From: Candidatus Heimdallarchaeota archaeon
Lineage (GTDB): Archaea; Asgardarchaeota; Heimdallarchaeia; Hodarchaeales; Hodarchaeaceae
NCBI GenBank assembly: GCA_011364965.1
Contig: RDOB01000004.1
Coordinates: 197,003 to 261,002, forward strand
Direction: 5' to 3'
Length of the DNA: 64,000 nt
Below, in pieces: positions 47,448-64,000 of the stretch. The notes beneath the pieces are model-generated. The model saw nothing but the letters and a program-made list of their open reading frames with translations, was not told the DNA's origin and made no database searches. Numbering within the stretch: the first letter of the stretch is position 1; each line of letters starts with the position of its first letter. The position numbers and the translations under genes were made by a program.

Positions 47448-47777
47448 TATTAATCATTACTCCAGCAATCAGGCATGAAATGATGCCCATTTCGTCGAAT
47501 CTTGCTTAAAGAGGGAAAGTCTAAAAAAGTTCCTTTGTATGTCCAAAAAACACAGATGAAATGCAAAATTGAAGCACCCTGAAATCTACCACAAAAAGAA
47601 TATAGAGGAAGAAGAAAAACAGAATTACAGCAAAAAGACCAGTATATATATGAGAAAATTAGAAAGGAGGGAGTTTAAGAGGGAGATCTGTATGAAAATA
47701 ATTAGAAACTGAAGGGAAAGGGAAATAAGACCCTATTCTGCTTAGAAATCATATATGATCGCAAAGTAGTAAGAAAT

Positions 47778-47863
47778 ATGCGCCGACCGGGAATATCAAT
47801 AAAATACGCCATAGGTATTTTATTTTTGAACCCGGCTTACCAGCTTGGAAGGCTGGAGTCCTA
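47778..47863. repeat. 86-bp perfect inverted repeat, left copy (within tRNA-Gly)
   Basis: Reverse complement is identical to 50295-50380. Confidence 0.95.
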
Positions 47864-47884
47864 ACCAGGCTAGACTATCGGCGC
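47779..47884 (-). tRNA. tRNA-Gly(TCC) with a 32-nt intron at position 59/60 (47793-47824)
   Basis: Acceptor GCGCCGA/UCGGCGC, anticodon arm CCAGC-CUUCCAA-GCUGG, T arm CCGGG-UUCAAA|U-CCCGG after removing a relaxed-BHB intron with a 9-bp hairpin. Confidence 0.92.
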
Positions 47885-48012
47885 GACACGTCATCTATTC
47901 GGATATTCATTGCTTAATCGAGTGTTTTCCCGTCTTTAAGCAGCTTTTGTGTCTTCTCTTCGTTTTTTGTTTTGTGTACGCTCCCTGTTCTCCCTTTCTC
48001 TTAGTCCCTTTT

Positions 48013-48753
48013 TTATGTTTTTGGTCTAAAAATCGTGTACTCTTCTCGCCATGTTTCATCTTTGGTGTAGAAGTCTTTATCGTACTCGACGAAACTCTTT
48101 TTGCTTGTCCATACTTCCAGATTTGTCGCGTAGTTGTCTTTGGGGGCGGGTAGAATGACCTGTTTGATGTAACTTGTCTGCAATGTTAATAGGAGGGGGT
48201 GAGGATTGGGGATTGCCCCCACTTGCCCTATATCAATATGTTGGATCTTCGGACACTCCAATACGGGGGTTAAATCCACTTTTTCTAGAGGATTTTGGCC
48301 CATATAAAGTGACTTCAAATTTTGACAGTGCCTCAGTGGCGTTAAATCGACTGAGGTCAGGCGGTTACTCCTAATATCTATCCGGGTTATGTTTGGCCAG
48401 CCTTTGGCCCAGGTCAGATCGACTTCTGGTAACAGATTGACACGAAGTGTCAGTGTATGTAGTGGCGTGCACTTTCTCAAGACGCGAGTCTCAAATGCCT
48501 GTAATTCGTTTCCACTTAAGGAGAATACCTCTATTGCGTTACAGTTCTCTAAGCTTTCACTGTGTTGAATCTCTTTAAGGCCCGCGAAGATAATTTCTAT
48601 ACTACTCAGATCTGGGTATGCTTCCAACGGCTTGAAATCTAGTGTTGGATATCGAGTATATGGTGGGTCGCCCCCGTTATAGCTTACAACGTACGATCCA
48701 GAAAAGCCCTTTTTGATGAACGCTTCAGGTAATTTAATTTGTAACCACTCCAC
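48013..48753 (-). CDS. Leucine-rich repeat protein (copy A, intact)
   Basis: LxLxxNxL repeats: FSLSGNELQ, LTLRVNLLPEVDL, IDIRSNRLTSVDLTPL, LYMGQNPLEKVDL. Confidence 0.88.
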   Translation of the reverse strand: MEWLQIKLPEAFIKKGFSGSYVVSYNGGDPPYTRYPTLDFKPLEAYPDLSSIEIIFAGLKEIQHSESLENCNAIEVFSLSGNELQAFETRVLRKCTPLHTLTLRVNLLPEVDLTWAKGWPNITRIDIRSNRLTSVDLTPLRHCQNLKSLYMGQNPLEKVDLTPVLECPKIQHIDIGQVGAIPNPHPLLLTLQTSYIKQVILPAPKDNYATNLEVWTSKKSFVEYDKDFYTKDETWREEYTIFRPKT

Positions 48754-48834
48754 GATTTAATACTTTATGCATATATTAACGTTTTTCTGGTTTATAAACC
48801 TTTGTTTTTACGGAATTATTACGAAATAGAGCTT

Positions 48835-49617
48835 TTAGTCGGGTTTCCAGCAATAATTGACCGTATCATATGATTGACCAGGCAGGATCAGGCGGGCGAT
48901 ATTGCAATCCCAGTCAAACACCCAATCATAGACTAAACGGAAGTATTTGTTCGTACAGTAGGCTTCAGAATGGCCGAGATATCCAAATTCCCCAAAGAAA
49001 AGCAGTTCTGCCGTCATTATACTAATAACTGCTACATCAATCCAGCCTACAATGACATTTACTCCTGGAATCATGGAGGCAACCACATTCACGAAGATAA
49101 TCAATATCATCAACGCGATGAATGATAATACTGCGAGGATTTGTTCTAGGATCGACCCTGCAGGACGGTTGAAATCGATATAAGCGGGAAGACTGGTGCC
49201 AACACTCACTGCTGAGTTAAAATTAAAGTTATACCGTAAGGATGAATTTACGGGATCTTGATGTGATACCCCTACTAGAATATTAATCACTCCATTCTGG
49301 CGAGGACGGCTATAATACTCACCATTGTAAAAAACATCATCCCCATTGTCAAAGAAATATCCAGGAGATTGATTCGAATCGAACTCCAGCGTTCGGGCAA
49401 TCACTTCAGTCTCGCTACTCGCATAGAGGGTTGAGATCTGACTGGAGCCCCAAGAGTATGCATTTACCTCGGAGAGAACAGGAGCTGAACTATGACTTTG
49501 AGGTGCCGCGAAACTCCACACCTCAACCTGTAGCTGAGTAGCACTGATACCAGGTACTGGAATATATAAGGGAGGGGAACTGGCAGCATAATCCCTCCAG
49601 AAGAACCAGGTTTTCTC
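48835..49617 (-). pseudogene. 5'-truncated gene for a membrane/surface protein
   Basis: Frame is open from 49617 (EKTWFFWRDY...) without a plausible start; two C-terminal hydrophobic segments. Confidence 0.55.
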
Positions 49618-49621
49618 TCAG

Positions 49622-49885
49622 GTTATCAAGCTCCCCTTGTCACAGGTGAAAGTCCTTCTCTATTATGGTTTCTTGGGGAAGCTGCCCCTCATCACGATGG
49701 ATATCGAGAAAACCCTCCTCCAGCTAAATGTTTCCTATGATTTCAAACGGACGGGGATGTTATTGAAGGAACTCGCCACTGAAGAGCTTATTGAGATGGA
49801 AGAACGTGTCTCCAAGAATAATCGCACCTATCGCCTATGGAAGTTCCCACCTGTGGCGTCATTTACCCCTAGTAATGAATTATAG
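49622..49885 (+). pseudogene. Winged-helix-like gene fragment
   Basis: DIEKTL...KRTGMLLKELATEELIEMEERVSKNNRTYRLWK; abuts the divergent truncated ORF with no promoter space. Confidence 0.45.
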
Positions 49886-50264
49886 GGAACTTCTTACCAA
49901 AAGTACAATCATTAAATTTAATTGCAGACAAAATCCCTCTAATTTGGAGAACGAATTCAGGATTTCTCTTAGCTCTTGTATCCATTGAGGCAATCTGTAT
50001 ATGCTGAATTTAAATGGCCAGAAGCTTACTATACCAGTAATTGATAATGATGTAAACAAAATAGAATTTTATCTATCTATCCACCCTAATTTGGACATAT
50101 AGAAATGCAAGAATGAAAAACAACAGCTAATGTAATCCGCCAAGGAGGAAATACTTACTTCTCTTATGCGTTTTAAAGAATTAATTTATGCTATTGAAGA
50201 TAAATTTGTGGTTTTCTTATACTCAAAAATAGCACAGAATGGCATTAAACAAAATAACATTGGC

Positions 50265-50286
50265 TATATCAAACATCCTTGATATA
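50265..50286. other. 8-6-8 palindrome next to the tRNA fragment
   Basis: TATATCAA-ACATCC-TTGATATA. Confidence 0.55.
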
Positions 50287-50294
50287 ATCGGAGC

Positions 50295-50380
50295 TAGGAC
50301 TCCAGCCTTCCAAGCTGGTAAGCCGGGTTCAAAAATAAAATACCTATGGCGTATTTTATTGATATTCCCGGTCGGCGCAT
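50295..50380 (+). repeat. 3' fragment of tRNA-Gly(TCC) including its intron; right copy of the 86-bp inverted repeat (att-like)
   Basis: Identical to the tRNA from the 3' side of the D loop to just past the discriminator; lacks the 5' acceptor strand and most of the D arm. Confidence 0.93.
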
Positions 50381-50386
50381 TTTCCA

Positions 50387-50679
50387 TTATTTTTCTTCAG
50401 ACAGGTCAAATCCTTTACCGTAAAAATCAGCGACTTCAAAGTAGATCTTTTTCATTGCTATTATTTGCGAGCTTAATCTCAATGATATCGAATATTCTTG
50501 ATTCATGCTCGGCCAGGCTTTGCTGGATAAATTTCCAGTCTAATCCCTTTTGGCCAAACTGCTTTGTGAGGTACACATATTCACTATCAATCCCTTGATA
50601 ATGATCCTCGGCTTCTAAAATTATTATCGCGTGACCAAACGATTCTCTTGTATCCCCAACAATCTTTACGATTCTTCAT
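50387..50679 (-). pseudogene. Frameshifted small conserved hypothetical gene
   Basis: IVGDTRESFGHAIII...GIDSEYVYLTKQFGQKGLDWKFIQQSL...FDIIEI, then frameshift to KKIYFEVADFYGK*; the ATG at 50679 is out of frame with the body. Confidence 0.55.
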
Positions 50680-50693
50680 CCCTTCTTACAGAT

Positions 50694-51938
50694 CTAATGC
50701 TCTATCTCATAACGTAATATAGCACAAATGCCTCCAAAACTCTGAATTTGTCTACCTTCTTCTGTTGTGTCACTGATAATTTCAGTTCTTGCCCCAGTCT
50801 CTTCAGCTAAATATCCCAGATTCAAAATTAAATCTTTCTTTTCAATGTCCCATTTAAGAGTATTACACTTCGGACAGGAGGTTTTTTGAATTTCAGATAT
50901 ATAATTACTTTCTTCTTCAAATTTAATCGTTGCTTCTTGGAGGAAAGAGCAATTTAAACATGTACTTTTCATCCGTAATAGATTCAAACCCTTTGATACA
51001 AGTAATGTATCGACCGCTCCCATTTTAAGATTCTCTCGAACCTCTTTTTCACCATAATTTGCTTTATTTGCCATCATAGCATCAAGAAATTGACGAACCA
51101 ATTTCTTCTCTTCCATAATTGAAACTCCTTCTAATAAATCTTGAGATTCTGAGACTAATTCACGGATCCCACTTTGATCTCCTCCATATCCTAAATCCTT
51201 TATCCCAATCAGTTTGTCTTTTAGGCGCTTATCAAAGTATTCAATCACTTGTTCTTTTATTTGACCAGGTCCTCCAACGATAATTCCTTTTAAATTCTTA
51301 TCAGGGGCTTCAATAAAGAAATTTTTTAATTCATCAGCAACTCTTTTCATAAATCGAGCTACAGCTTCCTCTCTTAATCTAGCAAATCGAACGCTACTCT
51401 GGCCACCTTTTCTGTGTTTTTTAGCTGCTCCACTTCTTGTAGATTTAATGATTTCAATATTTCCTCCCTTTAATGTAGCAATAGTAGCTTTAGCTGAATC
51501 AATAGCAAGCAATGCATATAATTCCTTTTCAACCATCCGATCTAAAAGGTGTTCAACATGAAAACGGTTATCACAAACGTAAAGTTTTCGTGAAACTGGT
51601 TCTGGAGGTTCAAAAACATAGGATTCGATTTTAAAATCCTTATGACCTGAATCAGATGTGGCACCAGCGAAAAAAACAATTCCAGTTGAAGGAGATTTAT
51701 TACCATATAGTTTCAACTTGCCAATGACTGTGCGGAGTGCGCTAACAACATTTTTCTGAGTGAATTTACTACGAATGTTAGTTGCTGTACCTATCTCTTC
51801 GGTCAGCTCTTGAACAAAAGCAGCGATGGCACGATCAGGAGGAACATAGAGAGAGATAAGACATGTACTCCCATCTGGAGATTCCTTTTTTTGGAGATCT
51901 GTCAATTCTTTCTCATATTTATATTGTTTAAAGCTCAT
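50694..51938 (-). CDS. prf1: Peptide chain release factor aRF1
   Basis: LISLYVPP, TATNIRS (NIKS variant), YVCDNRF, KGGQS, YGEKEV, GGICAILRY. Confidence 0.96.
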   Translation of the reverse strand: MSFKQYKYEKELTDLQKKESPDGSTCLISLYVPPDRAIAAFVQELTEEIGTATNIRSKFTQKNVVSALRTVIGKLKLYGNKSPSTGIVFFAGATSDSGHKDFKIESYVFEPPEPVSRKLYVCDNRFHVEHLLDRMVEKELYALLAIDSAKATIATLKGGNIEIIKSTRSGAAKKHRKGGQSSVRFARLREEAVARFMKRVADELKNFFIEAPDKNLKGIIVGGPGQIKEQVIEYFDKRLKDKLIGIKDLGYGGDQSGIRELVSESQDLLEGVSIMEEKKLVRQFLDAMMANKANYGEKEVRENLKMGAVDTLLVSKGLNLLRMKSTCLNCSFLQEATIKFEEESNYISEIQKTSCPKCNTLKWDIEKKDLILNLGYLAEETGARTEIISDTTEEGRQIQSFGGICAILRYEIEH

Positions 51939-51999
51939 TTTGCATTCCTAATTCCATATATCGTCTGGATTGCCCAGTATTTCTTCTTTAACAGCGATG

Positions 52000-52989
52000 T
52001 TAAAAAGACCCGGGATTTAACAAAGCGCTTTCAATCGCTTTATAGAAGGTGGAAAAGCTATTAATGAATTCATTAAATGTTATTTGCTTCCAATCAGTGA
52101 GAGGAGAATATTCAACGAAGTCTAATCGCAATATTTTCGCTGAACATCGATTACAAATCATTGAGAGTATTTTTAATGTTTCTCTTATTTCTTTGGATTG
52201 GGTTTCAACACTTTTTATTTTCTGTAATCTAAAAGATTCAAGATCAGTGAAGTAGCCAAGAATTTCTCCCAGTTGAACGTTTGAATCCGAGTTCAACTCT
52301 TTATATTCCTCTAATTGTTGTTCAAGATTCATAGAATGTCCGATTATTAGGTCTCTATGCCAAAAATTTGCATAACCCATGAATGGATTCCGAGAGATCT
52401 GATAAAAATCTAGATCTATCGTTACATAAATATATTTCTCCTCAAGCCATTTAATAAACCCCTGATTCTGAATCAATCTAGATAGCTGATATTCTGAAAA
52501 TGCAAAATTTGAGAGATTATTTAATTCATTTGAAGAATCTCCCCAAAGTCCTATTACGACTGTTCTACTGGCTAGATTTTTAGTAATCCATGCATTGTGT
52601 ATATTATGGTTGTCTCGAAAGTCAAGATGGGCATCTAGAGTGATAATCCCAAAATTTTCGTCAAAATGCTTTAAATAATCTCCAGCAATGAATTTAGCAG
52701 GAGCGTGAGAGGGTGAAACATTGAGTAATTTTGGGGTTTCATTCCAAATATTAAAAGGGAGGTCATTATAGGATCGTGAGTTTAATACTTGATTGTGGGG
52801 ATGCTTCTTAAGGTAATTATGTAACTTTAGATAAAAATCGGGGGCAATGATGCCCTCAAACTCAAGGTTAGGATATTTATTTTTCAGGAATCTTATTTTT
52901 TCGAAAGCCCAGTATTCTTCAGCCCAGAAGTTAATAACTCCATATGTATTGGGAGGAAAAGCAGGAAAAACCCTATTTTTAGATGGCAT
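52000..52989 (-). CDS. Divergent arginase/ureohydrolase-fold protein
   Basis: LDAHLDFRD, YVTIDLDF, DFVEYSPLTD; start placed at ATG 52989 just after the pyrH stop. Confidence 0.6.
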   Translation of the reverse strand: MPSKNRVFPAFPPNTYGVINFWAEEYWAFEKIRFLKNKYPNLEFEGIIAPDFYLKLHNYLKKHPHNQVLNSRSYNDLPFNIWNETPKLLNVSPSHAPAKFIAGDYLKHFDENFGIITLDAHLDFRDNHNIHNAWITKNLASRTVVIGLWGDSSNELNNLSNFAFSEYQLSRLIQNQGFIKWLEEKYIYVTIDLDFYQISRNPFMGYANFWHRDLIIGHSMNLEQQLEEYKELNSDSNVQLGEILGYFTDLESFRLQKIKSVETQSKEIRETLKILSMICNRCSAKILRLDFVEYSPLTDWKQITFNEFINSFSTFYKAIESALLNPGSF

Positions 52990-52996
52990 TGTAGGG

Positions 52997-53677
52997 TCAT
53001 CGATTTTGAATGATTGTACCCACATTCTTCCCCTGAATCGCATCCTTAATTTTATCTACATTATTTGAACAAATAATGATTTTTATATTAGATCGTTCGC
53101 AAATCTTGGCAGCTATTAATGTAAATGGAGCATTTGATCCTGCTTCTAATGATAATGGTGAAACAACCTCATAAAATTCATAATAGGATAGCTGGTCAAA
53201 TTTTTTTGCTTTAGGATGCTTTTTGGGATCTTTCTCATATATTCCATCAACATTTGTTATATTAATCAACATAGGACTCCCAAAAAGATCAGCAAGTATT
53301 GCTGCATCCTCATCAGTCTTGATAGCAGGAAGAAAGCCACCTGATAAGCCGATATCGTGTTGTTGAAGCTGTTCTTGTAATTCTTTTTCAGTAGAAGGTA
53401 ATAGAGGGGAGCAATGACCCTTAAAGTAGAAAGAAAGCAACCGTGCGTTTACCCAAGTGGCTGCAATCCCCATGTAATCCCGCTCGCCCTCAGTTAAGCC
53501 ATCTGGTAATGCTTGAATATACTGACGAGCTACGATCCCTCCACCGCAAACAATCATAAACCTAAATTTGGGAAGTAACGCAATAATAGCATCTGCAAAT
53601 GATTGTAAGAAATTCTTATCAATTTCACCTGGGTTGATAATACTTCCACCTAAAGAGATAGTTATTGTTGGTTTCAT
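52997..53677 (-). CDS. pyrH: UMP kinase
   Basis: ISLGGS, VCGGGIVARQYI, DYMGIAAT, GGFLP, TNVDGIYEKDP. Confidence 0.92.
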   Translation of the reverse strand: MKPTITISLGGSIINPGEIDKNFLQSFADAIIALLPKFRFMIVCGGGIVARQYIQALPDGLTEGERDYMGIAATWVNARLLSFYFKGHCSPLLPSTEKELQEQLQQHDIGLSGGFLPAIKTDEDAAILADLFGSPMLINITNVDGIYEKDPKKHPKAKKFDQLSYYEFYEVVSPLSLEAGSNAPFTLIAAKICERSNIKIIICSNNVDKIKDAIQGKNVGTIIQNR

Positions 53678-53841
53678 GGAAATAGGCTCCAATTCTAATA
53701 ATAGGATGAATTAAGATTTCAAGAAAATCACTTTCGATTTATATCTAAAAAAGATGTCCTCTCTTCAGCTCTTTTCTAAGGGGATATTAAAACTGAGGCA
53801 TTTTAAAAGCAACTTGAAAAATATTGAATTAGAGAGAGAAA

Positions 53842-54001
53842 TGCCGCGGGTGCGAATTTCAGGTACTGAGGTTACCTCAATTTACCATTTGAACGCACGG
53901 CAACTGGATATCCAATCCTAGGATCACCCTAGATCTTCAGTCCAGCGCTTACGGGTCGCTACCGTCATAACGGTGCATCTCCCGGGCTAAGCTACCGCGG
54001 C
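53842..54001 (-). tRNA. tRNA-Phe(GAA) with three introns (22/23: 53950-53978; 37/38: 53910-53934; 59/60: 53856-53887)
   Basis: Removing three BHB-bounded inserts gives a 74-nt cloverleaf GCCGCGGUAGCUUAGCCCGGGAGAGCGCUGGACUGAAGAUCCAGUUGCCGUGCGUUCAAAUCGCACCCGCGGCA. Confidence 0.88.
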
Positions 54002-54194
54002 TTGGTGTTATAAACATTCATGAGTTTTCTTTAATCTCTCAGCCTGGCCTTTAACCAGCTTTTACTCAGCAGCTCATGAAATTTATTTTAATTTTTCCTT
54101 TGCATACCTATTTTTTTACTTTTGTGATATTCTAAAAACAGACTGCTAATATCTCTAGGTGCTTAATACTTCTATAATTTTTGTGGGATTGTTT

Positions 54195-54383
54195 CTAATC
54201 AATCCTACGTCGATTATTAAAATTCTTGGTTTGCCAAGAATACCGTCGAAGTTTCGGAGCGGGAAATCCACAATAGGCACATTGACCTTTTCGTTTATGG
54301 TAACTTCGATTTCCACATCGACGACATTGCATATGTGTTCGTTGGGAGGTGCGTTTTCCGCGTGCTGCTGTTCCTTTAGTCAT
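54195..54383 (-). CDS. rpl37e: 50S ribosomal protein L37e
   Basis: MTKGT, CRRCG, CAYCGFP, RRYSW. Confidence 0.96.
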   Translation of the reverse strand: MTKGTAARGKRTSQRTHMQCRRCGNRSYHKRKGQCAYCGFPAPKLRRYSWQTKNFNNRRRID

Positions 54384-54424
54384 TATTTACACCATTTTTT
54401 CATTATTAATTAAAATATAGAGAA

Positions 54425-54661
54425 TTATGGAGGGGAAATCAGAATAACATTATCTCCACGAAGGATAATATTTCCTAAAGCTTCCACTTTTTGCTCCTCC
54501 TCATCTTCTTGAGGGGGATAGATCATTTCAGCGTCTTCCAGATAAAGATTAAGATGGGGATCATAGCTACGTAAAATCCCGCGGACTTCTCGCTGACCAC
54601 GCACCTTCAAAATGACCATTTTGCTAAGTGCACCATTTAATACATCTAAGGGTCTGCTCAT
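54425..54661 (-). CDS. Sm-like (Lsm/SmAP) protein
   Basis: RPLDVL, GILRSYDPHLNLYL, LRGDNV; upstream of rpl37e as is usual in archaea. Confidence 0.95.
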   Translation of the reverse strand: MSRPLDVLNGALSKMVILKVRGQREVRGILRSYDPHLNLYLEDAEMIYPPQEDEEEQKVEALGNIILRGDNVILISPP

Positions 54662-54715
54662 AGTTAATCACTAAGTCGTGTTTGTATTCTTGGGAAAGAT
54701 CTCCAGAGCGAATAA

Positions 54716-54898
54716 TGCTCCGATCGGGATTTTCAGAAAGGAGAACACATCTCGATTCCTTTGAACCCGAGTCCTACCGCTGGTGGTCTTCTTCTGGAAT
54801 TTCCAGCAAAATCCGACCAGTGTCAGGGCGAAAGCCTGAAATGATTGGCCGAATGCCTCACATGGCGCCATTCTTGGGCCAAGCTACACCATCGGAGC
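54716..54898 (-). tRNA. tRNA-Glu(TTC) with three non-canonical introns (21/22: 54845-54874; 44/45: 54774-54821; 59/60: 54730-54759)
   Basis: Spliced 75-nt cloverleaf: acceptor GCUCCGA/UCGGAGC, anticodon arm UCAGG-CUUUCGC-CCUGA, variable CGAC, T arm UCGGG-UUCAAAU-CCCGA; BHB cores GGCC/GGCC, CCUG/CGGU (relaxed), UUCA/UGAA. Confidence 0.85.
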
Positions 54899-55134
54899 CC
54901 TCTTTGGGACACAGTATTCCAACAGAGTTTGTTTCAACTTTCTCATGTGGAATCAGGTACTCCTTGCGCTAATTCTGGCAATATCACCCGCCTTGTTTCA
55001 GATTAAAAAGGTTTATTGCAGTCTATTAAATCTGGTTCAACTTATTGTTAAAACTCAGATTTAAGTCAATTTTCGATGGTTTTTCTAAGGGAAAGAAGGG
55101 CTTTTATTAACTGTAATTCTTGGGTTCTTCTTGA

Positions 55135-55524
55135 ATGGTCTCTGTATTATGGACGTTGAATCTATTGGTTTCCTTAAAAGCACGCAGAAGACAGCAAAGA
55201 TCGAAAGATAAAAAGCAAAATCTGTTGATCGGTCGTGAAGCGACCAATTTTCTCTTGAATGAAAGTTTAAAATTGCGTGTAGTGGATCCAGAACGAAGCA
55301 AGCAATTATATTCAGATGCAAGGAAACTAGCTGAACGGGGACGATTCCATCTTTCAAAACGGCATAGAATACTATTTTGTAAAACTTGTAAAACACCATT
55401 CAGTAATCAAACAGTAAAAGTGCGTTTAAATTCACAAAAAAAACAAATTCATTATCGGTGCTTAATTTGCAAATCAGAAAAGCGCTTTGGGTATAGCAGT
55501 CGGAAAATTATTGGTGAAAAATAA
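55135..55524 (+). CDS. rnp4: RNase P protein component 4 (Rpp21)
   Basis: FCKTCKTP...VKVRL...YRCLICKSEKRFGY; start uncertain. Confidence 0.85.
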   Translation: MVSVLWTLNLLVSLKARRRQQRSKDKKQNLLIGREATNFLLNESLKLRVVDPERSKQLYSDARKLAERGRFHLSKRHRILFCKTCKTPFSNQTVKVRLNSQKKQIHYRCLICKSEKRFGYSSRKIIGEK

Positions 55525-55844
55525 TGTTTGTTGCAATTTATTCAACTTTTGAATCGATGAAGGAAGCCAAATCCTTGGCTAGATATTTGGTTGAAGAAAA
55601 ACTTCTCGCGTGTGCAAATTTAATATCTAATGTTGTTTCAATTTATTCTTGGGAAGGTAAAGTCGAAGAGAGTACTGAGATCGTCTTATGGGGCAAAACT
55701 CAAGATCATCTGATTGATAGAATTAAAAAAATTATTGAAGAGAGACATTCCTACTCTCTACCAGCATTAAGCGTTTATCCGATTACGACAGGTAGTGAAG
55801 CGTATTTGAAATGGATCAAATCAGAAACTTTGATTAAGACCTAG
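55524..55844 (+). CDS. cutA: Divalent-cation tolerance protein CutA
   Basis: LLACANL, SIYSWEG, HSYSLP, YLKWI. Confidence 0.92.
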   Translation: MFVAIYSTFESMKEAKSLARYLVEEKLLACANLISNVVSIYSWEGKVEESTEIVLWGKTQDHLIDRIKKIIEERHSYSLPALSVYPITTGSEAYLKWIKSETLIKT

Positions 55845-56875
55845 ATATCAATTGTTACCAGAAAATTGTGTTCCTGTTTGTAAGTCTCAATAGATACATC
55901 GAAAAATCTTTGAATTATACTGATATTTGTTTTTAAATGATTAGATATATATGGAGTGCAAAATACGCTTGAAGATGTCGCTAGAGCTAGTATTGGAGTA
56001 ATCTGATCTGCTAATAACGGATCAACGGCAGCTTGTGCATCCAACGTATTAATATACCGCTTTACTGCACCCTCTCCAACTTTCTCTGCAGGAAATCTCT
56101 TTTCACCCACAAAATCTCCAGCTAGTGAGGTTTTGCCTATTTGCGAATAAATTAGAACTCCTGAACCTGGATTATTTGCTTCAACATAATAATTTGTAGC
56201 TGATACATCAATTCCCCTTTCATTTAGGACATGTGTAATTGAAGAAGTTTGCCTATCAGCAACTCGTGCTTTTCTAAGACTATTTGAAGCATAAGATGCA
56301 ATAACAGCACTTTTCGGATTATTAAAATGAGATAAATCAATGCCTGTCAATGAAGAGGGGGGATGAAAAGTCGCTTTTATCATCGCACCTCCCCTAGGAT
56401 AAAATCCATGCCTTTCAACGGTCATTTCTATATGGTAATTCAATTGTCTAAAAATATACCAGGTAACAAGGTCAATATAAGGAATGCTTGGAGCCCATTT
56501 ACCAAATGTAGCGCCACCATGACAATTCACCTCAAGCTGGTGGGATGAGGCTCCTAAAGCAGCTAATTGGATTGATTGAAGAACTAAACCCAGGCTCCCT
56601 GCAGTAGAAATGGTCAGATTTAGCTCGGATTTCCAATTATCCCCAGGAATAAAAGTAATCGATTCAGATCCAATAACTGCATCTTTTAATTGCCCTCCAC
56701 AGAAATCTGCAAGAGCATTAAGTCCAATAAGATGTTGTGTTTTGAGGCCAGGGGTTGGTCTTTTTTTACGTATATTTATTATTCTAACAGGTTCTTTTGA
56801 AATAATTGCAAAAGCAGTTGCTAAGCGAAGGATTGCCCCTCCACCTTCTCCTTCACTTCCATCGAATTCCTGCAT
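55841..56875 (-). CDS. rtcA: RNA 3'-terminal phosphate cyclase
   Basis: DGSEGEGGGAILR, RPTPGLKTQH, GFYPRGG, LADQ, SNHLKTN. Confidence 0.93.
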   Translation of the reverse strand: MQEFDGSEGEGGGAILRLATAFAIISKEPVRIINIRKKRPTPGLKTQHLIGLNALADFCGGQLKDAVIGSESITFIPGDNWKSELNLTISTAGSLGLVLQSIQLAALGASSHQLEVNCHGGATFGKWAPSIPYIDLVTWYIFRQLNYHIEMTVERHGFYPRGGAMIKATFHPPSSLTGIDLSHFNNPKSAVIASYASNSLRKARVADRQTSSITHVLNERGIDVSATNYYVEANNPGSGVLIYSQIGKTSLAGDFVGEKRFPAEKVGEGAVKRYINTLDAQAAVDPLLADQITPILALATSSSVFCTPYISNHLKTNISIIQRFFDVSIETYKQEHNFLVTIDI

Positions 56876-56995
56876 TTTTTCACCACTCAGCTAGAGGGGA
56901 TTTGTTTATAGAAGATAAGATCTCAAATAAATAAAATAAATTCCTACACGTACATGAACAAAAAAACATCAGGGTTGAGTAACCATGTTTTAAGT

Positions 56996-57157
56996 TTATC
57001 CCGCTCGTTCTTTCCGTTTGGGTCTTAAGCGTTTTGAACGACATATACGGCACTTTGTAGCTTTTGGAGGATTTCGTGCATAGCACTTTCTACAAATCAT
57101 CATGTCTAATAATTGGGCACGAACGATCTCTCGCTTCTCTGGGTCGGTGATTGGCAT
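56996..57157 (-). CDS. rpl40e: 50S ribosomal protein L40e (absent from the ORF track)
   Basis: Manual translation MPITDPEKREIVRAQLLDMMICRKCYARNPPKATKCRICRSKRLRPKRKERAG. Confidence 0.95.
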   Translation of the reverse strand: MPITDPEKREIVRAQLLDMMICRKCYARNPPKATKCRICRSKRLRPKRKERAG

Positions 57158-57792
57158 CGTAATACGGTCCTCTTTACTCGTTCATTTAGAACACTAAAGT
57201 TAGATACTGGATTTAAACACAAAGGTTGAAATCTGACTATTGGGAGAGTATTTTATGAAATTTAAATTCTTTCTTAGTGACTCTATTGGTGAGTACCACT
57301 TGAGAGAGATATCATTAATCTGTTGATATTTGCTTTTATAGAATTTAACACGATTTCCTTTCGTACTCCGTACCTTTTTCGTATTATAGGGATGAAATAT
57401 TGAATTTAACTGGAGAAAGGTGAATTTTTTCTCCAAACTTGCCGACTCAATTCCCGTTTTCGATCTCATAATATAAGCTGTCCTAAAAACCAAGTTCCCC
57501 AAGCTTAGAATTCATTTTTCTGAAAAATAGGTGAATATATTTAGAAAATATACATCTAAGTATTTTAATGCCGAAAATAACGAATAATCATAATAAATGA
57601 GATTTTGGTCGGGTTTTTAGCCCCCCACCATTTCGAGTCGATAATATTCGATTTAACGACAAAAAAAAAGAATGAGTTCAGAACAGACAACTATAGGTAT
57701 GTTAGTCGGTCCTTACTATTTCCAGAAAATCTTAATATATAAGTGAAAACAAGAGGTAACATAGATCAGAAATTCAGAAAAGGTGTAGCCCC

Positions 57793-58081
57793 TATGCAGT
57801 ATTACATGAGTGTCTCAGAAATCCAAGATCGTGTAAAAACATTAATTGGCCATTTAACAGGAAGCTATAACGCCAAATCACCATTCTTTAACCCCAAACT
57901 CGCCACAGCACTCCAGAAAATGGTTGATCCTAACTTACTTAATAACGAAAAAGTTGTTGATGAAATTATTACGGCGTTTTTAAATTCAATTATTTTAGCA
58001 GGGCAACTGGGTATTGATATCGAAACGAAAATCAACGAATACCTTATTCAATTAGAGAGAGAAGCATTATTTGCTATGTAA
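57793..58081 (+). CDS. Hypothetical helical protein, possibly a degenerate MazG-like fold
   Basis: EIITAFLNSIILAGQLGIDIE resembles the MazG C-terminal helix; acidic metal-binding motif not evident. Confidence 0.6.
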
Positions 58082-58150
58082 GCCATTATAAAATAAGAAA
58101 TGTAATTTTATCTCTGAATTTCATTCTGATTTTTATAAGACGACTTTTAA

Positions 58151-59251
58151 TCAAAAGAATAGAGCAACAACTGATTCTAGGTTCGTAATACCCAAAATTA
58201 AGATGCTTAACACCCCCAATGTAAGGAATAGTAAGCCTCCAAAAATCGGAAGAGGTAACCCCGGTAAAGCCCGTTCTTTCTGAAGTAACTTAAAAGTTGC
58301 AAATACACCAATAAAGAGTCCAATGAGTGCTGTTATTAAGGGAAAGGGATTGGCTAGCTCATATCCGATTACTACCGCTGCGCTGATTAACATACTAAAG
58401 AAAGCAAAATCACCCAAACCAATATTGATCAAAGGGGTTGAATATACAGGTAGTGCAGGTAATAAGGGAACTTTTTCGTATTTCACACCTGATTCAGATT
58501 CTGCTTCTATCATCTCCATAGATGCTTCTGCAGATTCTCTTCCATGATCGATAATACCCTTTAAGGGGCCTCGAAAGACAGCATATATGTCATAAAGAGA
58601 AAGGCCAATTAGAATAAGAAATGCAGTCAAAAGTCCCAAATGAATAGCCATCATTGATCCAATCATAGCTCCAAAGAACATCATCATAATGTTTCGAATC
58701 CAGATGCGATCGAAAGTTTGAATAGCAAATGAAAATGTTCCCAGAATGGCCAAAAGAAGTGCAAAACCATATAAAAATATTTCTACTACATAAACTGGCT
58801 GTGAATCAATCGTTATGGACCATTCAAAGAAATTGTTGATAGCTGATTGAAGGAAAGAAGGTAAAATGTTCCATATTAAATTTATACTTTCAATTAGAAG
58901 GATACTACCATAAAATAATCCAAAGACAAACCAAGAGAATCCCATCAAAGCAGCAAAGAAATATACCAAGAATTGCATGAATCCTTTCTTAATAATGAGT
59001 AAAACAACAAGTCCTCCAAGAAACGCTAGCCCAACATAAAATAACATATTAAGTAGAGCTCCTTGGGCAATTCCGCCCGGATCAGAGGGATTTTCGGGAA
59101 TTGGGGATATATCTGGTGGTTGTTCATCGATAGCTTGATAAAAACTTAAAGTAAACATGGAGAGAACGATCGCAATTAGAATAACAATGATTATGGGCTG
59201 AATAAAGGCTCGAAAACGTCCGTCACTCTCTGAAGCTGTTGTGTTACTCAT
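58151..59251 (-). CDS. Presenilin-family intramembrane aspartyl protease
   Basis: LSLYDIYAV..GPL, PALPVYS, IGLGDFAFFS, LPGLPLPI; about 9 TMs. Confidence 0.92.
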   Translation of the reverse strand: MSNTTASESDGRFRAFIQPIIIVILIAIVLSMFTLSFYQAIDEQPPDISPIPENPSDPGGIAQGALLNMLFYVGLAFLGGLVVLLIIKKGFMQFLVYFFAALMGFSWFVFGLFYGSILLIESINLIWNILPSFLQSAINNFFEWSITIDSQPVYVVEIFLYGFALLLAILGTFSFAIQTFDRIWIRNIMMMFFGAMIGSMMAIHLGLLTAFLILIGLSLYDIYAVFRGPLKGIIDHGRESAEASMEMIEAESESGVKYEKVPLLPALPVYSTPLINIGLGDFAFFSMLISAAVVIGYELANPFPLITALIGLFIGVFATFKLLQKERALPGLPLPIFGGLLFLTLGVLSILILGITNLESVVALFF

Positions 59252-59329
59252 TTTTCTGTCAAGAGGGTTTTTTACAGTTATGTATTAAATTAGATGTTGA
59301 AACGGAAACGAATTGGGATTGGAATATAG

Positions 59330-60316
59330 TTGACATCGCTTAAATCAATAGGAGAATTGGAAATTATTCACCTGCTACAACCTTTTTTAGACCACATGGT
59401 CCATTTAGATAATAATGAGGACGCATATGTGATAAATGATATCCCCCCATATATTCTCATGAATGTAGATTCGATGTCTAGAGCATCTGACTTCCTACCT
59501 CATCAAACATGGAAACAAATTGGCAAAAAACTAATAACAAGTACTTTTTCAGATATCGCGGCAAAGGGGGGGCTTCCCACCTGTTTTCTTTCCTCCTTGG
59601 TTTTGGAAAAAGATATGAAAAAAGCTGATTTTATAGATCTTATAAAAGGCATAAAAAGTGCTTTAAAACGGTATAACGCGAAATATTTTGGGGGAGATTT
59701 AGGAACTGCAGGAGAATCGACATTAACGGGGATCGGAGTAGGTATCGTTGAGAAAGGAACAATTTTAGCTCGTAAGAATGCAAGAAAAGGAGATCTAGTT
59801 TGTGTAACAGGTGAGTTTGGATTAACTTCTCTAGGGTTTAAACTACTGTTAGAGGGAGAAGAAAAAAGTATTTATCCAGAATTTTTAACAAAAAAAGCAC
59901 TTCAACAGCTGTATGAGCCTGAACCCAGAATTCAAGAGGGACTTATATTAAGTAATACGCATTTCAACCATGCATGCATAGACAGCTCAGACGGATTAGC
60001 CATATCTTTACATTGGTTGACTCAAGCGTCAAATGTAGGTATTTTGGTAAATCAACTACCCCTAAATAAAGACCTAACTGAAATTTTCACATCACCACAA
60101 GAGCGGATTGAATTAACGATGTACGGAGGGGAGGAGTATGAGTTAATATTCACTATTCCAGAAAAATGCGTTCAAAAAGTCAAATCTTCATTTGAGGAAA
60201 AGGGATGCATATTTACTGTGATTGGAAAATGCATAGATAAACCTGGTGTCTATTTCAAAGAAGGAGATAAAAAAATCTCCATAGAAAAACGAGGGTGGGA
60301 CACATTTAGATACTGA
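59330..60316 (+). CDS. thiL: Thiamine-monophosphate kinase
   Basis: IGELEII, SDIAAKGG, GGDL, VCVTG, IDSSDGL, GGEEYELIFT, GWDTF. Confidence 0.93.
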   Translation: MTSLKSIGELEIIHLLQPFLDHMVHLDNNEDAYVINDIPPYILMNVDSMSRASDFLPHQTWKQIGKKLITSTFSDIAAKGGLPTCFLSSLVLEKDMKKADFIDLIKGIKSALKRYNAKYFGGDLGTAGESTLTGIGVGIVEKGTILARKNARKGDLVCVTGEFGLTSLGFKLLLEGEEKSIYPEFLTKKALQQLYEPEPRIQEGLILSNTHFNHACIDSSDGLAISLHWLTQASNVGILVNQLPLNKDLTEIFTSPQERIELTMYGGEEYELIFTIPEKCVQKVKSSFEEKGCIFTVIGKCIDKPGVYFKEGDKKISIEKRGWDTFRY

Positions 60317-60347
60317 AAATATAATAACAGAAAGAAAATAAGAAGAA

Positions 60348-60420
60348 TGCGCCGACCGGGATTTGAACCCAGGTCACCTGTGTGGCAGACAGGAGTCTTA
60401 CCAGACTGGACTATCGGCGC
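60348..60420 (-). tRNA. tRNA-Gly(GCC), intronless
   Basis: GCGCCGAUAGUCCAGUCUGGUAAGACUCCUGUCUGCCACACAGGUGACCUGGGUUCAAAUCCCGGUCGGCGCA. Confidence 0.93.
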
Positions 60421-60565
60421 TCGATGAAAAGAAGACCTTTCTGCCATTTATTCGCCTCTTTCATGCTTATTCTGTCGTTTCTTCGACTTCAATCGGTCTT
60501 TATATCTTCTCATTGGTTTTTGTTCTGTGTGCGCTCCCTATTCTCGCTTTCTCTTGGTACCTTTT

Positions 60566-61317
60566 TTATGTTTTTGGTCTATAGATGGTGTATTCTTCCC
60601 GCTATGTTTCATCTTTTACGTAGAAGTCCTCATTGTATTCTACTGTGCTCTTTTTATCTGTCCACACTTCCAGATCTGCCGCGTATTCTTTTTTTGGTGC
60701 TGGTAGGACGGCCTGCTTGATGTAACTTGTCTCCAATGTTGCTATGAGCGGGTGATTCCTTGGGATTGTTCCCTCTCTTTTCGTATCTATATACTGTATA
60801 TTCGGACACTCCAATAATGGCGTTTAATCCACTTTTTCTATTGGATTTCCTCCTATACTTAACAATTCCAATTTTCTGCAGTTTCTAAGTGGATTTAAAT
60901 CTACTGATGTTATGTAGTTATTCTTAATATATACCTGGGTTAATTTTGACCAATATTTCACCCATTCGAGATCGATTTCTGTCAATATATTAACATCTAG
61001 TACCAACGTGTGCAGAGGTTTACAATTTTTCAGTACATGGGTGTTGAATGCTTTTAATTCGTTTACACTTAAGGAGAATACCCGTATCGCTTCACATTTC
61101 TCTAAGCTTTCATTGTTTTGAATCTCTTAACGCCCGCATATATAATTTCTATTGCGCTTAGTTCTGGGTAAGTTTCCAACGGCTTTATTTCTAGTATTGG
61201 ATATTGTGTATATGGCGAGTCGCCCCCGTTATAGATTACAATTCGCGGCCAGTGTGTGAAGTGCCTCAAGCACTCTACATCTGTTTCGAGTAATAGTCTG
61301 ATCTTTAACCGATCCAT
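60566..61317 (-). pseudogene. Leucine-rich repeat gene copy B (paralog of 48013-48753), inactivated
   Basis: Colinear with copy A (YNGGDSPYTQYP, TSYIKQ, PAPK, KDET, RPKT*) but with a 1-nt deletion near 61128, TTA>TAA at 60824-60826 and TGG>TAG at 60602-60604. Confidence 0.9.
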
Positions 61318-61566
61318 CAAGACGGAAATCTGTCCCATTTTAGGATGAGATGCCAAAGATACTTACAAATTCACCCTCAATGATATAAAACAACCACAAT
61401 AAATTGTTGCCAATAAGTAAAAATTCCAAATATTTTTCTAAAAGCATATTGGAATCTAGACTCATGCTGATGACTGTTATATTAATATTAAAGCTCTCAA
61501 TCTAATCAAATCTATAATACAATTGCGAGTAAATAGGTTTTAAAGCTCTTATTGAAATAAAAGGAA

Positions 61567-62616
61567 GTGGTGGAATTCTTGAATGAAGAACAACAGAAAC
61601 ACGATTTTTTAACACGAACTACAAAATATGGCCGGAAGGGTTACTTAGTCGCAATCTTTCTCTTAACAGGGCTCAGTAATCTTATTTTCTTCATTCATCA
61701 TCAAGTAGTTGGTTTAGCTCCTGGTTGGACATGGGAGCAAGAGATTTTTCAACAAATTTTCATTCTCATTGTCAACTCTTTGGTGGTTTTATTCACTGAT
61801 TTATCATCTGACATGAGTTTCAATCTATTTAAGAAATTAGAAGAAGAGCAAGTTATTCCACGAGAAAATGTGGAACAGATTAATGGTTTTTTATGGGATA
61901 AAAAAGTCTATGCTATTACTATAATTATTTTTCTCATCTCTGTTCTATTTGGATTAATGAATATTATTATGGGTTTTGAACCTCTAGAATATGTGTTCAG
62001 TTTAGAGTTTCTTGCTGCTTTGATTGGTCAACCTGTTTTCGCCTTAATCTTTTCCGAATTAATCTGGATCATTTTCTCTACCACTGTTACAATACTTCTA
62101 CTTCCTTTCAGAAACTGGAAAGTGTCTCTTAATGTTTTTAGTGGAGACAAAGCTGGGGGAATACATTCTATCTCGACCTATTTATTACGAATATCCTTAA
62201 TGATAACATTATTATGTACTACTTATTTATACTGGGTATTAGGACCAGCCACTTCAATATATCCCCTTGAATGGCGGATTGTAGCACTATTCGGGGTGCT
62301 CTCTCTTCCATTGTTGTATTTTATAGTGCCAACGATAGGATTAAATCGAATTATGAAGAAAGAGAAGAATACTGTTCTACGTGAGCTCTCAGTAAGGCTG
62401 AATCACGCTTATTCGACTCTCACAACTGATTCCTCTAAGATAGATTCAACGATACTTGAACAGGTACAATTGGTAGAGCTCTTACATACTAAAGCTACCC
62501 AGATGAGGGAATGGCCATTCAGTCTTTCAGGATTGAGGAATTTACTTACCTCTTTTATTCTCCCTATAGGTTTATTTTTCCTTACTAACCTTCAAGACAT
62601 TTTATCCTTGTTTTAG
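61567..62616 (+). CDS. Hypothetical multi-pass membrane protein
   Basis: About 7 hydrophobic segments; DKAGG and EWPF motifs. Confidence 0.75.
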   Translation: MVEFLNEEQQKHDFLTRTTKYGRKGYLVAIFLLTGLSNLIFFIHHQVVGLAPGWTWEQEIFQQIFILIVNSLVVLFTDLSSDMSFNLFKKLEEEQVIPRENVEQINGFLWDKKVYAITIIIFLISVLFGLMNIIMGFEPLEYVFSLEFLAALIGQPVFALIFSELIWIIFSTTVTILLLPFRNWKVSLNVFSGDKAGGIHSISTYLLRISLMITLLCTTYLYWVLGPATSIYPLEWRIVALFGVLSLPLLYFIVPTIGLNRIMKKEKNTVLRELSVRLNHAYSTLTTDSSKIDSTILEQVQLVELLHTKATQMREWPFSLSGLRNLLTSFILPIGLFFLTNLQDILSLF

Positions 62617-62885
62617 TTACAATGACGTTAATTCCTCCTTCTTGGAGCTAGCTTATTCAAACGCGTGAATAAAGTGAAAATATTGCTGATAGTGCATTTA
62701 GAGAACTCCTGAAGGTCGAAATAGTAAAAGCAAGAGAGATCTCTTTAGTACAAAATCCAACAGAGCCCTTTTCTAAGACTTGTTTAAATTCAAACCAGCA
62801 TATGTGATATTGTTTTAGTAAGAATACTTATCATTAAAGTTCCACAATTATACAATTAAATTTTAAGCTTCTCGGATGTTAAAGA

Positions 62886-63668: not shown

Positions 63669-64000
63669 TCACCTGAACATTCATAAGGACAGCAATGCAA
63701 TTCACAATTTTAATCGATCTCCTCCCCTTCGTGTAGTCTCTTCTATAAACTAATACTTAATGTCTAATAAAAAAGATAAATATCTTTTCATTTTCATCAC
63801 CAGTTCCTTAAGTGACTCTTTTACGCTTATACCACCAAAAATACCCGCCAAGTAGACCAAGCAGGCCAAGACTGCCACTAACCACCAGTAATGGGAAAAA
63901 AAGCTCTATTCCAGAAGAAAGACCATGTCCCAGTACTCCAACCCACCCTAAAGTGACAGTTCCAGCAATAATTTCTTTATCAGCTGACCCTAAGACATCC

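Follow-up and report, generated by a model that had tools for sequence, protein, structure and literature searches.

Why does the same small leucine-rich repeat (LRR) gene lie just upstream of two different tRNA-Gly genes in one archaeal genome? The question is raised by a 64,000-nucleotide (nt) stretch of DNA from Candidatus Heimdallarchaeota archaeon (GenBank assembly GCA_011364965.1, contig RDOB01000004.1, positions 197,003 to 261,002; G000:C12:197003-261002 in our labelling), which was analysed at its full length and is called the window; coordinates without a prefix are positions in it. The assembly (G000) comprises 2.97 Mb in 16 contigs with ~35% G+C. The window was compared with eleven congeners, with a conspecific assembly (GCA_016839295.1, contig L070) and with a sister species (GCA_016839505.1, contigs L034, L042 and L079), and homologs were searched for in the genomes of 40 relatives. 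The LRR gene is part of a small accessory cassette that also comprises the hydrophobic open reading frame (ORF) o228, its own promoter and a 3' flank of ~60 nt. This cassette encodes no recombinase and occupies the narrow interval that separates the 5' end of tRNA genes from their promoter. With about an even chance of being right, we propose that this cassette was put before all three tRNA-Gly genes (anticodons TCC, GCC and CCC) of one Hodarchaeales-type species cluster by tRNA-anchored host recombination that would have been homologous at one end and illegitimate at the other.

LRR gene A (48013-48753, minus strand) is an intact ORF of 246 amino acids that matches the Pfam families LRR_8 (7e-16, 58.1 bits) and LRR_4 (41.6 bits), with a curated cut-off of 27 for each; its single-sequence AlphaFold model was poor and unusable (mean predicted local distance difference test score, pLDDT, of 56). 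The gene is preceded by a TATA-like GGTTTATAAA at about 48791-48800, which is conserved in L034. Ratios of nonsynonymous to synonymous substitution rates (dN/dS) of 0.13-0.21 against the sister-species copies show, by this measure, that copy A and its sister-species counterparts are, or recently were, functional genes under purifying selection. Downstream of the LRR gene follow a purine-rich 3' flank (47954-48012, minus strand), which forms the 3' border of the cassette and is common to copies A, B and L035, and a spacer (47885-47953, minus strand) without significant likeness to the B spacer or to the upstream regions of relatives. This spacer would have to hold the predicted promoter of the sole complete tRNA-Gly(TCC) gene (47779-47884, minus strand), which lies 128 nt downstream of LRR gene A. 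The tRNA was overlooked by ARAGORN and Rfam because a 32-nt intron (47793-47824) interrupts its T-loop; the intron-free sequence is called as tRNA-Gly(tcc) by ARAGORN, and the intron (position 59/60) folds into a 10-base-pair hairpin between 6-nt single strands, inside the T-stem.

LRR copy B (60566-61241, minus strand) has neither the promoter nor the first ~22 codons and carries one frameshift (a 1-nt deletion near 61129) and two stop codons (TTA>TAA near 60825 and TGG>TAG near 60603), and is therefore a pseudogene. It is followed by a conserved 3' flank (60501-60565, minus strand) and, 145 nt downstream, by tRNA-Gly(GCC) (60348-60420, minus strand; Rfam 62 bits), an ancestral gene without intron. 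ORF and tRNA calls thus bear out the co-oriented arrangement described in the earlier note, namely the LRR copies at 128 and 145 nt upstream of tRNA-Gly(TCC) and tRNA-Gly(GCC). That note had further taken copy B as an LRR paralog spanning 60566-61317; the paralogy holds, but homology ends at 61241 and the gene is not intact.

The two loci are 12.5 kb apart, and their homology runs from 48689/61241 to 47954/60501, i.e. over ~740 nt with 71-82% identity. Conservation of the ~60-nt non-coding 3' flank between A and B, as had been proposed, is well supported (score 73 versus 17.5 +/- 3 for shuffled sequences, with 0/2000 shuffles reaching the score), and this flank is ~85% identical between the copies compared to 72% for the gene body. 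No significant similarity exists between the 69 and 80 nt adjoining the tRNAs, as 217/2000 shuffles score as well; the impression from a global alignment that the homology reaches right up to the tRNAs was rejected on these grounds. Descent of the A or B spacer from the native tRNA-Gly(GCC) leader was likewise rejected: an nhmmer profile of this leader built from nine congeners matched neither locus, and pairwise tests against the sister-species tRNA-Gly(GCC) leader were not significant.

In the eleven congeners a common gene order is kept, with GlmS, o110, o159, tRNA-Gly(TCC) (plus strand), aRF1, ~9 kb of housekeeping genes, ThiL, tRNA-Gly(GCC) (minus strand) and SpoU, and none of them has the LRR gene, o228, o82 or o349 at these two tRNA loci. 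Empty TCC sites are likewise seen in the conspecific L070 and in the sister-species contig L079, where o159, the upstream region, tRNA-Gly(TCC) (plus strand) and aRF1 follow one another, and the presence of copy A varies within the species. Homology between the window and L070 stops at 47613, and insertion A therefore corresponds to 47614-50294 (2,681 nt), supplanting 55 nt of leader and tRNA nt 1-21 of the empty allele; the ends of three Logan contigs also fall at about 47613, at a distance of 166 nt upstream of the o159 start. The tRNA intron differs from that of the empty allele (32 versus 30 nt, plus several substitutions), although the surrounding DNA is 99.9% identical, and the first 140 nt past the tRNA contain 5 mismatches as opposed to 10 in the next 7.4 kb. 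From the changed intron and this excess of mismatches, it follows that insertion A brought its own diverged version of the tRNA together with ~130 nt beyond it. In addition to the LRR gene, the insertion contains its upstream partner o228 (48835-49521, minus strand), a hydrophobic ORF for which no match was found in Pfam, PHROG or NCBIfam, and o82 (49637-49885, plus strand), a fragment of a family that is 150-230 amino acids long in congeners. Homologs of o228 and o82 in congeners gave no lead on function, and an exact-protein look-up of o82 returned no match. A comparable layout of an LRR gene and o82 is seen in G005:C377:8-1041 (L065), which holds a generic LRR gene fragment and an o82 homolog as divergently arranged neighbours. 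Across the genus, the intron position of tRNA-Gly(TCC) differs (L021-L031, L070, L079): the T-loop (59/60) position is used in G000, the conspecific and the sister species, position 37/38 carries an intron of 19 nt in G007, G010, G003, G011, G008 and G005 and a longer one is found in G015, and the gene is intron-free in G002, G021, G019 and G006.

Insertion B (~2.4 kb, 60421-62846) lies between the old tRNA-Gly(GCC) promoter and the tRNA, and carries the LRR pseudogene and o349 (61567-62616, plus strand), a hydrophobic ORF without family match. Its left border is set by 62847-62882 (minus strand), which matches the sister-species promoter over 36 nt and represents a relic tRNA-Gly(GCC) promoter, now 2.4 kb from its tRNA. 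The motif CCGAGAAGCTTAAAA within this relic (62861-62875) is located within 10 nt of the SpoU stop, is unique in the genome and has its counterpart, in the sister species (L042) and G021, in the TATA-box region that precedes tRNA-Gly(GCC); in congeners, the gap between the SpoU stop and tRNA-Gly(GCC) measures 77-260 nt. Copy B and insertion B are 99.9% identical in GCA_016839295.1. The tRNA behind copy B is the only tRNA-Gly(GCC) gene found, and most congeners have it with 99% identity and with the gene order preserved. A paralog of o349 with 34% identity is encoded on the same contig (G000:C12:462685-463695). The same tRNA-Gly(GCC) locus holds a different insertion in the sister species, where a 192-amino-acid ORF (L042:1908-2486) without family match or G000 homolog separates the SpoU stop from the tRNA-Gly(GCC) promoter.

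The sister species also has an insertion at a third isoacceptor. Contig L034 has the order F420 ligase, a 3' fragment of o228, LRR gene, 114-nt spacer, tRNA-Gly(CCC), Urm1 and OTCase, and its tRNA-Gly(CCC) contains a T-loop intron. The CCC locus of our genome (G000:C13:190861-190974) has the same neighbours with only 79 nt from the ligase gene to the tRNA and therefore represents the empty site for the L034 insertion, the left border of which is at about -23. In the spacer between the LRR gene and tRNA-Gly(CCC) of L034, 72 nt are a copy, at ~86% identity, of the promoter and leader that this species has at its tRNA-Gly(GCC) gene (score 99 versus 18 +/- 2.7 for shuffles, 0/2000 of which reach it). 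In this LRR copy, codon 3 has changed from TGG to TAG (L034:8517-8525), while the next 39 codons are open and conserved (dN/dS 0.29); either the gene starts further in (205 amino acids as called) or it was recently disabled.

Each of the three isoacceptors (TCC, GCC and CCC) hence has an insertion at its gene that is absent from the corresponding site in relatives, and 3/3 of the tRNA-Gly-adjacent copies are co-oriented with the tRNA, 114-145 nt upstream of it. By our own arithmetic, a copy placed at random has a probability of ~1e-4 of being co-oriented with, and no more than 200 nt upstream of, one of the three tRNA-Gly genes, and the placement upstream of tRNA-Gly is far from random. One way to account for such regularity would be functional linkage, in which selection holds the LRR gene upstream of tRNA-Gly via shared transcription or processing, for example by read-through or a 3' processing signal. 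The common orientation and spacing would fit this, as would the severed native tRNA promoters, which require transcription to begin inside the insert, and the 3' flank of the dead copy B, which is better conserved relative to A (~85%) than its gene body (72%). However, the only tRNA-Gly(GCC) found sits behind copy B, which retains neither promoter nor reading frame, and two other copies of the gene are not co-oriented tRNA neighbours. We consider functional linkage improbable.

Of these two other copies, the first is a second LRR copy of the sister species (L042), located 158 nt upstream of the SpoU start in an intergenic region that, in the genus, is shared with the multi-intron tRNA-Leu(TAA) gene. 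The second, L035 (972 nt), contains a frameshifted LRR copy that has kept the 60-nt 3' flank, with no tRNA in the 249 nt that follow its stop codon; the terminal 44 nt of L035 match, in reverse orientation, positions -18 to -61 upstream of tRNA-Arg(GCG) of G000, an upstream region that is not conserved in congeners. Scattered homologs, which according to the earlier note would speak against an association with tRNA genes, are thus found to a slight extent, as two copies lie away from tRNA-Gly, both in or beside tRNA upstream regions. The family itself is small. Copies A and B are the only ones in the 2.97-Mb assembly, the genomes of the 40 relatives yielded generic LRR similarity only (<=30%), close homologs of at least 135 residues elsewhere numbered only two among 5.8 billion proteins, and scans of metagenome and genome contigs revealed no further members. 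No tRNA is located close to the small LRR genes of G001. The suggestion of a route for spreading LRR genes in Asgard archaea extends, so far, to five known loci, all within one species cluster.

Phylogenetic analysis groups copy B with L035 (98-100% support) and copy A with the sister-species copies, and A and B therefore do not derive from one recent duplication. Furthermore, the synonymous divergence (dS) of copy A from L034 is 0.67, which is lower than that of all eight flanking orthologs (1.03 to saturated) and for this reason suggests a transfer of the LRR gene between lineages after the two species had split. These results bear on the simplest conceivable history, a single segmental duplication of an LRR-plus-tRNA block in G000 followed by an anticodon change, or else mere chance co-location. 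The short distance of 12.5 kb and the ~740 shared nt would be in line with a duplication, but both tRNAs are ancestral in place in the eleven congeners, and a stretch of about 70-80 nt separates the end of the homology from the tRNAs. Copies A and B do not group as sisters, a conspecific assembly without A possesses B, and the third isoacceptor is involved in another species; chance is opposed by the ~1e-4 calculated for random placement. Such a history is barely credible, and one larger segmental duplication as the source of both loci, an outcome under which the earlier note would have abandoned its idea, is excluded by the position of A and B in the tree. Of the two processes envisaged in that note, duplication of an LRR-tRNA unit with recombination through the tRNA retains its second part, in view of the leader copy in L034 and the haplotype of A, and loses the single duplication, since A and B do not form a sister pair. 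As a pattern, repeated delivery to the 5' side of tRNA-Gly persists, with three isoacceptors, empty sites and non-sister copies, but not with a retroelement-like agent, as no sign of a retroelement or a dedicated recombinase was seen.

Recombination anchored in the tRNA genes would provide a common explanation for these features. The three tRNA-Gly genes have 19-20 of their first 21 nt in common, and their last 23 nt are exactly identical. Incoming DNA with the order LRR gene, spacer and tRNA-Gly, either from another strain or from a paralogous locus, could cross over in or just beyond any tRNA-Gly gene because these genes share their ends and because most genomes of the genus show 99% identity in tRNA-Gly(GCC). 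The far end of the cassette DNA would be joined without homology, as in homology-facilitated illegitimate recombination. Replacement of the resident leader would sever the tRNA from its old promoter, and the incoming spacer would therefore have to supply a new one. The far junctions are at non-homologous points (47613, -23 in L034, and 62846), each downstream of the old TATA box. Moreover, the tRNA-side end is fixed and the 5' extent is variable, with o228 being whole in A and reduced to its last ~60 codons upstream of the LRR gene in L034, and the first 22 LRR codons being lost in B. It is this combination of a fixed tRNA end with a variable 5' end, together with the leader copy in L034, the haplotype linked to insertion A and the absence of element signatures, that leads us to favour tRNA-anchored recombination. 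From the comparison of loci we infer the recombination mechanism, the way in which the transfers ran and the presence of a functional promoter in the spacers.

Several observations weigh against this explanation. The mechanism is read from the junctions only, the GCC-derived stretch in L034 stops 13 nt before tRNA-Gly(CCC), such that a crossover inside the tRNA is not proven, and the A and B spacers next to the tRNAs match none of the congener and sister-species leaders searched. Homology among tRNA-Gly genes leaves unexplained both L035, with its reverse match upstream of tRNA-Arg(GCG), and L042 in the SpoU/tRNA-Leu region. In addition, only five loci of the LRR family are known, and an 89-nt inverted repeat around insertion A is not accounted for.

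The left arm of this repeat (47775-47863, minus strand) consists of tRNA nt 22-106 plus 4 nt, and the right arm (50295-50383, plus strand) is a 5'-truncated copy of tRNA-Gly(TCC) that is missing nt 1-21; the arms are 99% complementary. The right arm has the ancestral position and orientation, i.e. the strand and the place next to aRF1 where the eleven congeners hold a complete tRNA-Gly(TCC). The junction of 47774 with the left arm recurs in Logan contig L082, whose end, 360 nt upstream of the o159 start, falls at about 47807 and 33 nt into the left arm, and other Logan contigs end 33 nt within either arm, which is to be expected of a true two-copy repeat. Block A is inverted in two independent assemblies with 99.8-99.9% identity to the window (JGI 3300009509, L036/L069; Logan SRR11241200, L076), where o228, LRR gene, spacer and a complete tRNA adjoin aRF1. 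Block A may flip by recombination between the arms, or a one-time inversion may have duplicated the 3' part of the tRNA. In G005 (L030, G005:C194), a direct partial copy of tRNA-Gly(TCC) comprising nt 1 to about 47 contains 31 extra nt in the D-loop and looks like the scar of another insertion.

tRNA genes are familiar landing sites of mobile DNA, usually through an integrase that acts on the tRNA gene's 3' half. The ORFs of the inserts A, B, L034 and L042 were scanned with Pfam, PHROGs and NCBIfam, which revealed no recombinase, transposase or reverse transcriptase families; TnsA/B/C and TniQ families of Tn7-like transposons were likewise not found in the inserts. Local alignment of the three tRNA-Gly genes to all inserts gave no score above those of shuffles and hence no att-like direct partial tRNA repeats, the only partial tRNA-Gly copy at the inserts being inverted. 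Neither terminal inverted repeats nor target duplications were identified at the insert borders, and retroelement marks at the inserts (reverse transcriptase or integrase ORFs, poly(A) tail, target duplication) were not found. The LRR copies could nevertheless be leftover cargo of site-specific tRNA-targeting elements, such as those with a tyrosine or serine integrase, Tn7-like transposons or HeimM2-like elements, with the recombinase and ends either deleted or acting in trans. Elements of Heimdallarchaeum that integrate at tRNA genes, one of them with an LRR gene (PMC8813620), and archaeal Tn7-like elements that attach at tRNA genes (bioRxiv 10.1101/2025.07.27.667033) provide precedents, the copies at tRNA-Arg and tRNA-Leu agree better with general tRNA targeting than with tRNA-Gly homology, and the direct partial 5' copy of tRNA-Gly(TCC) in G005 lies ~480 nt upstream of the full gene, as might be left by an element of this kind. 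What makes this origin, the main rival of tRNA-anchored recombination, the less likely of the two is that no recombinase or transposase family occurs in or beside any insert, that the repeats and duplications expected at element ends are missing and the sole tRNA repeat is inverted rather than direct, that the inserts are just 1.1-2.7 kb in size, and that the copy of a tRNA-Gly(GCC) leader before tRNA-Gly(CCC) is not a product of site-specific integration.

Systems with one homologous and one non-homologous end and no dedicated recombinase include homology-facilitated illegitimate recombination of the type of de Vries and Wackernagel and flexible genomic islets. As in these, the presence of the LRR inserts varies between strains and a diverged haplotype is linked to an insert. 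They differ in that the anchor here would be a tRNA gene common to three paralogous loci, so that the cassette could move within a genome, and in that the cassette would be placed between the promoter and the tRNA and would supply a new leader in exchange for the old one. The nearest described population-level parallel is, by analogy, the tRNA-Thr(GGU) locus of Caldiarchaeum subterraneum, where population variants include a 1.8-kb insertion upstream of the tRNA (Sugahara et al. 2012, PMC3293823) that encodes a DNA recombinase, occurs as six genomic repeats and has left a 5' tRNA fragment (PMC3293823). Both cases combine locus variants, an upstream insertion, a tRNA remnant and an insertion-borne tRNA with different introns, whereas the LRR inserts have no recombinase, the fragment is an inverted 3' piece and the cargo is an LRR gene.

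Within the Asgard archaea, Heimdallarchaeum harbours HeimV1 next to tRNA-Gly(CCC) and aloposons at various tRNAs (Wu et al. 2022, PMC8813620), as well as the 8-kb HeimM2 next to tRNA-Arg(TCT), which encodes an internalin-like LRR protein, and an element found at different tRNA sites in sister species (PMC8813620). Like the LRR inserts, these represent Asgard accessory DNA beside tRNAs, in one case with an LRR gene and in another at tRNA-Gly(CCC). Compared by description, they are far larger (8-44 kb or more) and carry integrases, homing-endonuclease-like or giant genes, which are lacking in the 1.1-2.7 kb LRR inserts. Retrotransposons such as Ty3 and TRE5-A of Dictyostelium insert immediately upstream of tRNA genes transcribed by RNA polymerase III, with a variable 5' extent. 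Insertion upstream of the tRNA near the transcription start and variable 5' extent are shared with the LRR inserts, a likeness in position only, since the latter have no reverse transcriptase, integrase, poly(A) or target duplication, and archaea have a single RNA polymerase. In a further scenario, which we regard as unlikely, a non-autonomous cassette would be delivered by trans-acting machinery into the gap between TATA box and tRNA 5' end, near the transcription start, and this would cover Gly-TCC, Gly-GCC and Gly-CCC and possibly also Arg-GCG and Leu-TAA. The Asgard archaea are eukaryotes' nearest known relatives among archaea, and a cassette delivered in trans, if real, would be an archaeal counterpart of the targeting of tRNA upstream regions by eukaryotic retrotransposons.

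Under tRNA-anchored recombination, a small gene of the host-interaction type would move among three tRNA-Gly loci and between strains without a recombinase of its own, landing between promoter and tRNA and in one case carrying along the promoter of a paralog. If true, this would give accessory genes a simple path from one diverged genome to another, as few stretches other than tRNA genes remain near-identical, and would explain the reshuffling of tRNA promoters, introns and gene fragments in archaea.

Beyond insertion B, a 480-amino-acid ORF without family match (G000:C12:260810-262252, window position 63808 onward) is inserted between SpoU and tRNA-Leu(TAA), where the gap is just 370-570 nt in the ten congeners compared; its conspecific copy (482 amino acids) shows weak or faint beta-propeller matches. 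The multi-intron tRNA-Leu(TAA) gene is located at about C12:262610-262775 and is miscalled as 'tRNA-Asp(atc)' by ARAGORN. In the whole genome, ARAGORN calls just 35 tRNA genes, several with implausible introns >1 kb, and many tRNAs of G000 have non-canonical introns and escape standard finders.

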